DNA of 64,000 nt from an uncultured Pelagibacteraceae bacterium (GTDB taxonomy: Bacteria > Pseudomonadota > Alphaproteobacteria > Pelagibacterales > Pelagibacteraceae), in NCBI GenBank assembly GCA_902591045.1, contig CACIZC010000003.1, positions 29,568 through 93,567 of the forward strand, written 5' to 3'. This document shows positions 35,433 to 36,798 of the stretch, in pieces. Position 1 is the first letter of the stretch; every line of letters starts with the position of its first letter. The notes below the pieces were generated by a model that saw only the letters and a program-made list of their open reading frames with translations, made no database searches and was not told the origin of the DNA. A program made the translations under genes and the position numbers.

Positions 35433-35509
35433 CGCGGGGTGGAGCAGTCTGGTAGCTCGTCAGGCTCATAACCTGAAGGTCGTAGGTTCAAATCCTACCC
35501 CCGCAACCA
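35433..35509 (+). tRNA. initiator-type tRNA-Met (anticodon CAT)
   Basis: CGCGGGGTGGAGCAGTCTGGTAGCTCGTCAGGCTCATAACCTGAAGGTCGTAGGTTCAAATCCTACCCCCGCAACCA is nearly identical in layout to E. coli tRNA-fMet (C1 opposite A72, CAU anticodon, encoded CCA). Confidence 0.92.
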
Positions 35510-35510
35510 A
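35458..35510 (+). repeat. direct repeat copy 1 (53 nt; 3' part of tRNA-fMet plus 1 nt)
   Basis: Identical to 36746-36798 in all 53 positions, compared by eye. Confidence 0.9.
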
Positions 35511-35555
35511 CAATACCAACACTTTTTTATTTTAAGATACGTAAAGAAAGTTTTC

Positions 35556-35575
35556 CTGACACACGCCTGACACAA
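35556..35575 (+). repeat. tandem CTGACACA motif pair, left copy
   Basis: CTGACACACGCCTGACACAA matches 18/20 with 36652-36671. The internal unit recurs with an 11-nt period. Confidence 0.7.
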
Positions 35576-35586
35576 AGTGAGGTGAA

Positions 35587-36615
35587 TTATTTATGTTCGC
35601 TGTAAAAAGCTTTCCTGTTTTCTGCTTGCGCAATCATCTGTTTAATTTTTGCAACTGTCATCCAACATTCTAGAAATACTGTTCCTCCTGTGATCAATGT
35701 TCCAAGATCACGATTAGACATGTCTCTATAATTAGGTGGTAAGAAGTTTATGTTGTTGGATTTTGCAAATGTTTTAAGTGTTGAAGATTTAACACCGAAA
35801 AAAATATTCTGCGCCTTTTCTGCTGGTAAAAGAGCCACAGCAACACCAACGACATTTCCTTTTTGATTTATTATTGGTCCACCGCTGTTACCTTCGTTGA
35901 TAGTTGCATCTGTTTGAAAGTTTGAATAATTGTCTCCAAATCCAGCAAGAGCAGTTACACTTCCTTTGTGCGTTTTAATTGCAGCGCTAACTTTTTTTCC
36001 AAGTGGAAACCCTGCAACAATTACATTTTCTAATAAAGAAACATCTTCATTAGACACTGAAAAAACTTTGTTTGGACTCATGTTAGCTTTGATAATTGCA
36101 AGATCATTTTTCTTATCTGTTGCAATAATATCTGCTGGTATTTCTTTTCCTTTGATATTGGCTTTTACTGCATTGCATCCCTCTATAACGTGATGATTGG
36201 TAACCATATGACCATCTTTTGTTACAAAGAACCCTGTGCCTGATGCTGCAGCAAGTATTTTATCGTCGTCAGGAATTTTTTTAGGTTTTTTATTGTCTGT
36301 CTCAACATTTTTTTTATTTGGATTTTTAAAATCTTTATACCATTCAACAGAACCTTCCCACATAGACCTTTGCCATCCCTCCGAAGTATCTGCTATCCAA
36401 TCTACCAAACATCCATCTGGATCCGCTTTTGCATAAAAACTCTTTCTCTTGCAAAGATTCATGGAATCAATCATTACTGTACCTAAATGTTTTCCTTTAA
36501 CTTTGTATAGTTTAGCTGCAGGATCTGATATATGTCTTGCTGCAGATATAGGATCAGCATAAGCATTCCCGCTCAACAACAAACCCAGAACCACGATCGC
36601 TAAGACTTTTTTCAT
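35587..36615 (-). CDS. secreted trypsin-fold (S1C-like) serine protease without a PDZ domain
   Basis: Signal peptide MKKVLAIVVLGLLLSGNAYA and the catalytic triad context TNHHV / NDLAIIK / GNSGGP. ATG at 36615 is preferred; the track uses GTG at 36621. Confidence 0.8.
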   Translation of the reverse strand: MKKVLAIVVLGLLLSGNAYADPISAARHISDPAAKLYKVKGKHLGTVMIDSMNLCKRKSFYAKADPDGCLVDWIADTSEGWQRSMWEGSVEWYKDFKNPNKKNVETDNKKPKKIPDDDKILAAASGTGFFVTKDGHMVTNHHVIEGCNAVKANIKGKEIPADIIATDKKNDLAIIKANMSPNKVFSVSNEDVSLLENVIVAGFPLGKKVSAAIKTHKGSVTALAGFGDNYSNFQTDATINEGNSGGPIINQKGNVVGVAVALLPAEKAQNIFFGVKSSTLKTFAKSNNINFLPPNYRDMSNRDLGTLITGGTVFLECWMTVAKIKQMIAQAENRKAFYSEHK

Positions 36616-36651
36616 TGACACAATTTTCTCACTTTTTTTCTGCGATGTCTA

Positions 36652-36671
36652 CTGACACATCCCTGACACAA
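36652..36671 (+). repeat. tandem CTGACACA motif pair, right copy (a third single TGACACAA at 36616-36623)
   Basis: CTGACACATCCCTGACACAA lies in the protease upstream region. The single unit abuts the protease start codon. Confidence 0.7.
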
Positions 36672-36745
36672 CGTTAAGTAAATCTGAAAATTTTATCTAG
36701 CTTTTTTGATGTGTTATGTTAATTTTATGGGCAGAAAGGTACATG

Positions 36746-36798
36746 CGTCAGGCTCATAACCTGAAGGTCGTAGGTTCAAATCCTACCCCCGCAACCAA
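36746..36798 (+). repeat. direct repeat copy 2: displaced 3' fragment of tRNA-fMet (att-like scar)
   Basis: Exact 53-nt copy of 35458-35510. The upstream 30 nt show only patchy D-arm similarity and cannot form an acceptor stem. Confidence 0.85.

Follow-up and report, generated by a model that had tools for sequence, protein, structure and literature searches.

Results

An initiator tRNA gene and a displaced copy of its 3' part bracket a single protease gene

We analysed a 64,000-nucleotide (nt) stretch of DNA from an uncultured Pelagibacteraceae bacterium, referred to below as the window, and focus here on a small island that lies between an intact initiator transfer RNA gene (tRNA-fMet) and a displaced copy of the 3' part of that gene. 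The window has a guanine-plus-cytosine (GC) content of 0.29 and resembles Pelagibacterales; among the matches listed, its closest genome matches are Pelagibacteraceae single-cell genomes. The intact tRNA-Met(CAT) occupies 35433..35509 on the plus strand, where it is called by ARAGORN, scores 66.5 bits in Rfam over model positions 1-71, folds into a cloverleaf (-28 kcal/mol) and carries, as read from the sequence, the C1xA72 mismatch typical of initiator tRNAs. Nucleotides 26-77 of this tRNA and one flanking base (35458..35510, plus strand) are repeated at 36746..36798 in the same orientation, 1,288 bp downstream, and the 3' part of the intact tRNA is now that of the left copy. This 53-nt direct repeat had been reported in a first-pass annotation made from the sequence alone, and both copies are indeed exact. 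Even when up to three mismatches are allowed, the 53-mer has only these two copies in the window, and it appeared in 0 of 100 shuffles; because there is no third copy, we rejected an origin in a dispersed repeat family, a possibility that the annotation had itself raised.

The second copy is a tRNA fragment, as the annotation had also proposed. Its match to the Rfam model is limited to positions 9-63 (42.8 bits), both the acceptor stem and the D arm fail to form, and its fold (-16.9 kcal/mol, z -0.4) is no better than those of shuffled sequences; on these grounds we rejected a second functional tRNA. tRNA-finding software, suggested in the annotation as a check, gave a divided answer: ARAGORN labels 36726-36797 a 72-nt tRNA-Met with its anticodon at position 30, against the fragment reading, whereas Rfam and folding speak for it. 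Given the partial Rfam match and the missing acceptor stem and D arm, we regard the ARAGORN call as a false positive.

The only real gene between the two copies (35587..36615, minus strand) encodes a secreted HtrA/DegP-like serine protease of 342 amino acids (aa) with a Sec-type signal peptide (MKKVLAIVVLGLLLSGNAYA) and a variable N-terminal region, in agreement with the single reverse-oriented, trypsin-fold cargo gene first described there. The protein matches Pfam Trypsin_2 at 5.7e-25; its HtrA/DegP-like domain spans residues ~105-286, where the best solved relatives are DegP-, DegQ- and HtrA-type proteases (1e-22), and its translation contains TNHHV, NDLAI and GNSGGP, which fit the catalytic-triad contexts TNxHV, DxA and GNSGGP. 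No PDZ domain was found by Pfam, and matches to solved structures cover just residues ~105-286. An exact look-up of the protease returned no match, and homologues number at least 1,773; the best 120 of these come from metagenome or uncultured-genome sources and combine a conserved protease domain with variable N-terminal parts. In runs labelled RNA-Seq, one 159-nt contig is identical to 36372-36527, a mere trace that does not prove expression. Comparison of base composition with the flanks, proposed as a further check, barely marks the island: GC at third codon positions (GC3) is 0.239 in the protease gene against 0.15-0.22 in its neighbours, and GC is likewise just slightly higher.

The island is absent from near-identical strains

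The first chromosomal gene after the repeat (36812..37573, plus strand) encodes a hydratase-like product of 253 aa that belongs to no Pfam family. Looking up the identical 253-aa product led to two independent metagenome contigs, L149 and L150, on which it is a called gene with a complete tRNA upstream. Both carry, in order, a cold-shock-protein gene, a complete tRNA-fMet, 13 nt and the ATG of the 253-aa gene, with nothing between. By blastn, positions 1-1724 of L149 match window 33787-35510 at 99.4% and positions 1672-3083 match window 36746-38157 at 99.9%; the overlap of the two matches is the 53-nt repeat itself, and L150 behaves alike. Because the k-mer used to assemble L150 (k=127) exceeds the repeat in length, real reads must underlie its empty junction. 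Near-identical strains thus differ by the presence or absence of a 1,288-bp island whose limits are exactly those of the tRNA segment, and the empty sites that the first-pass annotation had named as a prediction of integration do exist.

The gene order at the empty sites also confirms ATG 36812 as the true start of the downstream gene, in keeping with homologues that begin MSTLAEKL or MNTLAEKL. A mechanically called open reading frame (ORF) at 36716-37573 reads through the tRNA fragment (..RQAHNLKVVGSNPTPAT..), as the annotation had recognised when it placed the real start at 36812. The same read-through artefact was seen in contig L155, in an ORF that fuses the fragment to a TypA/BipA-like GTPase.

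Other SAR11 loci at this position are less directly comparable. A scan of genome contigs with PurE as the query gave five SAR11 loci among the matches listed, which are too distant (~78% identity) to be used as empty sites. In more distant SAR11 lineages (L069-L073, L153, L154), a conserved reverse-oriented 339-aa gene (MHLLIFLLMYSYP...) sits in the cassette's spot, between tRNA-fMet or the fragment and the hydratase-like gene. In L070 and L153 the slot holds extra methyltransferase- or glycosyltransferase-like genes with no tRNA fragment alongside, so the slot also varies by other means. Further along the window lie a 5S rRNA gene (41230-41344, minus strand) and an oxidoreductase-like gene (from 41411), a stretch that we take to resemble the edge of the large SAR11 hypervariable region beside the rRNA genes.

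The protease gene is flanked by arms that carry paired motifs

In lambda-type attP sites, the core at which strands are exchanged is flanked by P and P' arms, which carry repeated sites about one helical turn apart that are bound by the N-terminal domain of the integrase. The non-repeated DNA on either side of the protease gene has a comparable layout. A second internal direct repeat, CTGACACAcgCCTGACACAA at 35556..35575 and CTGACACAtcCCTGACACAA at 36652..36671 (both plus strand), brackets the gene, and each copy is a pair of TGACACA motifs 11 nt apart. The left, P'-type arm (35511..35586, plus strand) ends 11 nt past its tandem pair, at the stop codon of the protease gene; the right, P-type arm (36616..36745, plus strand; ~130 nt) abuts the start codon of the cargo gene. 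A fifth TGACACA (36616-36622, plus strand) directly adjoins that start codon, and a near-invariant box, GGGCAGAAAGGTAC, lies at 36729-36742 (plus strand). Counting both strands, five of the nine TGACACA copies in the window are inside the island, all in one orientation. From this layout, the TGACACA pairs may be arm-type sites of an integrase, and the island appears to keep both recombination arms, arranged as they are around phage attP cores. The right arm might also drive transcription of the cargo gene; it contains a promoter-like TAGACA-17-GAAAAT (36651 to 36623, minus strand) whose scan score does not rise above chance.

The right arm is conserved well beyond this genome. A metagenome scan for the arm pair, a gap and the core returned six contigs, all with short matches, and look-ups of protease homologues added three. 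In an alignment of ten loci (A1; the window and nine other SAR11 contigs), nine of the nine other contigs keep the ~130 nt that separate the start codon of a reverse-oriented cargo gene from the core, including the three motif copies and the near-invariant GCAGAAAGGT box. With the core excluded, the right arms of L153 and L154 match that of the window at 94% and 91.5% identity, respectively, but their adjacent hydratase-like genes do so at only 77% and 75.5%, which indicates that the arm has spread horizontally across lineages. The right-hand (attR) core is identical at 53 of 53 positions even where the arms fall to 68-79% identity. In Logan contigs the depth of the right arm is 230-390 against ~3-5 for the body of the protease gene; the arm is therefore joined to many more sequences than this gene.

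The motifs themselves vary in concert. All three copies read GAACACA in L162, all motif copies co-vary in L162 and L151, and motifs co-vary between arms. In L160 the equivalent of the left pair is CTGACACActgGTGACACAA. Left-arm-like sequence follows the fragment in L156, L157 and L160, which fits tandem arrays.

The same tRNA segment serves as a core in virus-like elements

A 52-nt tRNA segment corresponding to the core was found in 62 IMG/VR contigs. About 40 of these are high-GC prophage edges with a whole tRNA, and ~21 are virus-like contigs that hold the segment without the 5' half of the tRNA, the configuration expected of attP. Thirteen of the ~21 have a GC content of 0.33-0.36, and their identity to the window begins no more than 1 nt from the boundary seen there. 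Tandem pairs of an 8-10-mer, repeated at a period of ~11 nt, lie on both sides of the core at nearly all of the ~20 attP-like sites; each element has its own 8-10-mer, for example ATAGCGAC, GTGCTTACAT, TTGCGATACA, CAGTGACA and GTTGCCCA. Pairs with an 11-nt period were also seen at prophage edges in unrelated high-GC hosts: L011, L038, L049, L050 and L056 carry a further motif, GTGTCAACACTGTGTCAACA, in pairs ~70-90 nt after tRNA-fMet.

The element examined in detail, L022 (IMGVR_UViG_3300025168_016823), is circular (9.6 kb, GC 0.33, 127-nt terminal overlap) and encodes a tyrosine integrase ~80 nt from the core. It matches the window for 14 nt beyond the core and has its own arm repeat, CGTCATACGAGCGTCAAG, on both sides. 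Its other genes include an AEP-primase/AAA_25 helicase, a MORN lipoprotein and T5orf172 and NUMOD3 proteins; no capsid gene was evident among its ORFs. Over 32 nt, the sequences that encode the signal peptides of the MORN lipoprotein and of the window protease are 97% identical.

Related cassettes occupy three different tRNA genes

Arm-bearing contigs differ in what they carry and in where they sit. L154 has three small ORFs as cargo and L158 a MORN-repeat protein and other secreted proteins. The variable cargo genes share with the protease gene a signal-peptide-coding 5' end at ~90% nucleotide identity, and the chromosomal genes beyond the fragment differ among contigs. The fragment in L154 shares the compensatory T-stem variant GAAGG/CCTTC with the tRNAs of that contig's lineage (L069-L072) and is joined to an arm of the element type; the crossover therefore lay 5' of the T stem.

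We inspected eight genomic contexts of protease homologues. Three (L160, L161 and L162) are protease cassettes at tRNA-fMet, and the 53-nt repeat is exact in L160, where a second, decayed unit follows the fragment. Together with L154 and L158, these contigs provide the alternatively filled sites that the first-pass annotation had anticipated. L170 (5208-7130) is a cassette at tRNA-Thr, with an exact 56-nt repeat of the 3' part of the tRNA, two genes between and GACAACAAT motifs on both sides. L151 (1-1515) is a protease cassette at tRNA-Gly with an exact repeat of ~55 nt that spans the 5' half of the tRNA and its upstream flank; pairs of (T)GTGTCG, which read CGACACA on the tRNA strand, lie on both sides of its cargo. 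As for the remaining contexts, L172 places the homologue inside a full-length element at tRNA-Gly, L159 is not at a tRNA and P0027 returned no DNA.

Some contigs record exchange or decay among such units. L152 carries the protease gene and part of the arm at 99% identity to the window, but its last 11 nt past the stop codon are a flank of the L151 type (TAATTCCCCCG) and not that of the window (TAATTCACCTCAC), which suggests that cassettes recombine together at the 3' end of the gene. In Logan contigs from runs X2 and X3, window 35546-35576 is apparently joined to 36614-36674, that is, the left pair directly to the right arm. A contig from run X26, labelled RNA-Seq, likewise appears to join 35459-35510, 52 nt, and then 36565-36751, in the order core, 52 nt, truncated signal-peptide region, arm and core. 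Such junctions may represent units that lack cargo or whose cargo has decayed, perhaps arranged in arrays.

Integrase-bearing relatives carry similar arms at other tRNAs

There is no integrase in the island or elsewhere in the 64-kb window, as the first-pass annotation had noted, and tblastn with the integrases of L022 and of a second circular element, L163, was blank. Searches with these two integrases found only very close relatives, which use tRNA-Gly or tRNA-Val. In viral sequences the exact arm pair occurs in six contigs, none with the tRNA core nearby, where the motif lies inside or beside unrelated phage genes; the arm box joined to the core gave 0 matches. Across a cultured-phage collection of 50,697 records, similarity to the island is limited to the tRNA. 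With the protease as the sole gene between the attachment sites and this tRNA-limited match, we rejected a prophage.

Full-length elements that share features with the cassettes were found at other tRNAs. L172 (8133-19663) is an 11.5-kb element at the same tRNA-Gly(GCC) site as the L151 cassette, bounded by the tRNA and a 5'-half fragment. It encodes an integrase, a DUF5906 helicase, a GmrSD-like nuclease and an EcoRI-type methylase (defence-like cargo), and carries a protease homologue at its tRNA-proximal end and GGGACACA motifs on both arms; its integrase is called as two proteins of 79 and 234 aa and may therefore be split or frameshifted. The L151 fragment and the attP site of L163 share an identical flank, GAGGTAGTCC; L163 is a circular (circularly permuted) IMG/VR element of 5.9 kb with an integrase of the L172 type, a primase-helicase and a small terminase subunit. 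L163 and its relatives L167 and L168 are virus-fraction contigs of ~6 kb with a GC content of 0.34; for the last two, the integrase and attP region were examined. The attP core is the 5' half of tRNA-Gly(GCC) in L163 and the 5' half of tRNA-Val(TAC) in L167 and L168. All three have arm pairs of the xCACAC type, with AGCACAC or GTCACAC in L167 and L168. No conjugation genes were seen in the full-length relatives examined (L022, L163 and L172).

Discussion

A miniature cassette that probably entered by site-specific recombination

The explanation that we consider well supported is that the island is a miniature integrative cassette, itself lacking a recombinase, that entered the tRNA-fMet gene through site-specific recombination by a tyrosine recombinase. 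The empty sites, the alternative cargo and the attP-like cores, which in L022 lie beside an integrase, favour the attL/attR reading given in the first-pass annotation. The cassette would comprise 35511-36798, 1,288 bp made up of 1,235 unique bases and one copy of the 53-mer. The incoming DNA would have brought its own copy of tRNA nucleotides 26-77; if so, the tRNA was rebuilt at attL and the 3' part of the host gene was pushed 1.29 kb downstream, where it now forms attR. The anticodon stem-loop is the likeliest place for the crossover, which would have fallen 5' of the T stem. We envisage the cassette as a remnant or a parasite of phage-satellite-like SAR11 elements of 6-12 kb, which encode an integrase, a primase-helicase and sometimes a small terminase subunit, and as having kept both attP arms and one cargo gene, read from the right arm towards the tRNA. 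Once in a population, it may also be lost through RecA recombination between the 53-nt repeats and spread through homologous recombination in its flanks.

Several points weigh against this explanation. The empty sites could come from RecA deletion between the repeats and therefore do not prove recombinase activity. We found no integrase-bearing element that pairs the tRNA-fMet core with TGACACA-type arms: L022, the sole attP-like element for tRNA-fMet examined in detail, has different arm repeats, and the integrases linked to xGACACA arms (L163 and L172) use 5'-half tRNA-Gly or tRNA-Val cores rather than a 3'-half core. Integrase binding at the putative sites is read from their layout and co-variation only, and the first ~75 residues of the related integrases (L022, L163 and L172 type) match no Pfam arm-binding family. 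One TGACACA copy abuts the start codon and could be regulatory instead, and neither the promoter-like match nor anything else in a promoter and terminator scan exceeds chance. Finally, base composition is only mildly atypical, so that neither GC nor GC3 clearly marks the island as foreign, although a slight excess is what would be expected if the donor were itself associated with SAR11.

Because the cassette has no integrase of its own, it could move only if a satellite or phage supplied a matching integrase in trans. Whether it can still be mobilised in this way is a separate question, and we lean somewhat towards the view that it cannot. The first-pass annotation had offered two versions of the locus, an eroded stump and a minimal cassette mobilised in trans. 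Because the compact arm-cargo-arm layout recurs at three tRNAs, the evidence leans towards a minimal cassette over a random stump, with mobilisation in trans still conjectural.

Among the alternatives, the one that survives best holds that the island is an inert scar, the stump of a decayed satellite or prophage whose arms survive since the deletion was recent, where nothing binds and which homologous recombination alone spreads and removes. We judge this a serious contender, though one that probably fails. It accounts well for the missing integrase in island and window, for the lack of a cognate integrase in viral and cultured-phage searches, and for decayed neighbours such as the eroded second unit of L160 and the contig in which core, 52 nt, truncated stub, arm and core follow one another; remnants of the cis-mobilizable element type are, moreover, common elsewhere (PMC5704250). 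It sits badly with the independent cassettes at three tRNAs, each of which stops, left and right, a little beyond its arm motifs, a regularity for which random deletion is an unlikely source. Nor does it readily explain why the arm is better conserved across lineages than neighbouring coding DNA, why all motif copies co-vary in L162 and L151, or why the attR core stays at 53 of 53 where arms have fallen to 68-79% identity.

A somewhat less probable alternative concerns the last step only: this genome may have acquired the island not by fresh integration but from a conspecific carrier, through homologous recombination that replaced the allele by way of the flanking core genes. SAR11 populations recombine at very high rates, filled and empty alleles coexist at 99.4-99.9% flank identity, and the 99% identical protease with an L151-type flank in L152 indicates recombination among cassettes. 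Such replacement covers spread within a population, however; the origin of the structure still requires site-specific recombination, and exchange guided by flanks cannot give arms at 91-94% identity beside genes at 75-77%.

We give very little credence to an assembly artefact, in which the island was misjoined into the tRNA locus through the shared 53-mer: the repeat exceeds common k-mers and Logan contigs do break at it, but the full structure of tRNA, arm, protease, arm and fragment stands on single contigs of other samples (L160, L161 and L170), and L152 carries the protease and part of the arm at 99% identity. Still harder to credit is a working, unusual tRNA-Met as the second copy, with the protease gene merely caught between two tRNA genes: ARAGORN makes the same call in L160-L162, but the Rfam match and fold are those of a fragment, the second copy is wholly absent from the empty sites, and the box upstream of it is kept as an element arm and not as a tRNA.

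In a bolder version of the cassette explanation, which we regard as possible but rather unlikely, SAR11 bacteria would exchange live, recombinase-less micro-islands of one or two genes at fMet, Thr and Gly tRNAs. Their integrases would come in trans from 6-12-kb satellites or phages that share the arm motif, and the right arm would have two roles, one in recombination and one as the portable promoter or leader of whichever secreted-protein gene is attached to it. If true, the most streamlined free-living bacteria would have a cassette economy akin to that of integrons, but with no resident integrase.

The locus bears on how SAR11 genomes, usually described as nearly free of mobile elements yet drawing on large flexible gene pools, receive the genes in their islands. 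It can be read to the base pair: near-identical strains carry either the filled or the empty allele, the core is defined and the arms are conserved. It also ties the integrase-less cassettes of SAR11 islands to the small satellites with integrases that occur in marine virus fractions, a route of gene flow that becomes testable if the arms work. The recurring cargo, a large and fast-diversifying family of secreted HtrA-like proteases together with other proteins that share one signal peptide, supplies candidates for cell-surface or nutrient-acquisition traits that differ between co-occurring strains.

Comparison with known systems

The cargo protein shares with HtrA, DegP and DegQ (S1C) proteases a trypsin-fold domain with the His-Asp-Ser triad contexts, and lacks the one or two C-terminal PDZ domains of the DegP family. 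With lambda-type attP sites the island shares the layout of a core between P and P' arms; binding here is putative, the ~75 N-terminal residues of the related integrases having no Pfam arm-binding family.

Temperate pelagiphages integrate at SAR11 tRNA genes (bioRxiv 10.1101/410191; PMC8477408). They have a tyrosine integrase, with attP next to int and cores identical to parts of SAR11 tRNAs, and tRNA-Met is a reported target: the prophage PNP1 uses tRNA-Met, as cited in PMC8477408. Their reported cores measure 11-46 bp against 53 bp here, and their prophages hold structural and replication genes between the attachment sites, whereas the island has no phage genes.

Cis-mobilizable elements (CIMEs) are integrase-less and retain attL and attR; they can form tandem arrays with incoming elements and be excised by the recombinase of a related element (PMC5704250). 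The island resembles them in having lost integration and transfer genes while keeping both attachment sites. CIMEs, however, derive from conjugative or mobilisable elements of Firmicutes, and the relatives found here are phage-satellite-like.

Tycheposons and VEIMEs, the latter reported in Pelagibacter genomes, are small PICI-like elements of oligotrophic marine bacteria with a tyrosine recombinase and a primase/helicase, whose integration at tRNAs leaves partial tRNAs, tandem arrays and remnants (PMC9618062; bioRxiv 10.1101/2020.12.28.424599). L022, L163 and L172 appear to fit this description. Cassettes of the kind seen in the window share with these elements the tRNA integration that leaves partial tRNAs, the tandem arrays and the remnants; the window cassette itself lacks the hallmark recombinase and primase/helicase and would be at most a derivative. 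The reading that best fits the mini-cassettes is that they are reduced relatives of small, phage-satellite-like elements such as tycheposons and VEIMEs.

A close precedent comes from SAR11 genomic islands without canonical mobile elements, in which partial tRNA repeats mark cassette insertion (Microbiome 2025, PMC11796062). In the available part of that report, the islands belong to the same organism group and, as here, adjoin a tRNA, contain a partial repeat of it and have no integrase; the signature is given there for four islands, with arms undescribed, and the tRNA-fMet site could be among the four. The present locus is thus a well-resolved case of a kind already described, the integrase-less, tRNA-marked cassette. 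Relative to that available part, what has been worked out here for tRNA-fMet is the arms and empty alleles, the protease cargo that recurs and the tie to integrase-bearing satellites. New in this study are a conserved arm with its motif pairs, HtrA-like protease cassettes that recur at three tRNAs and a connection between such cassettes and integrase-bearing satellites.

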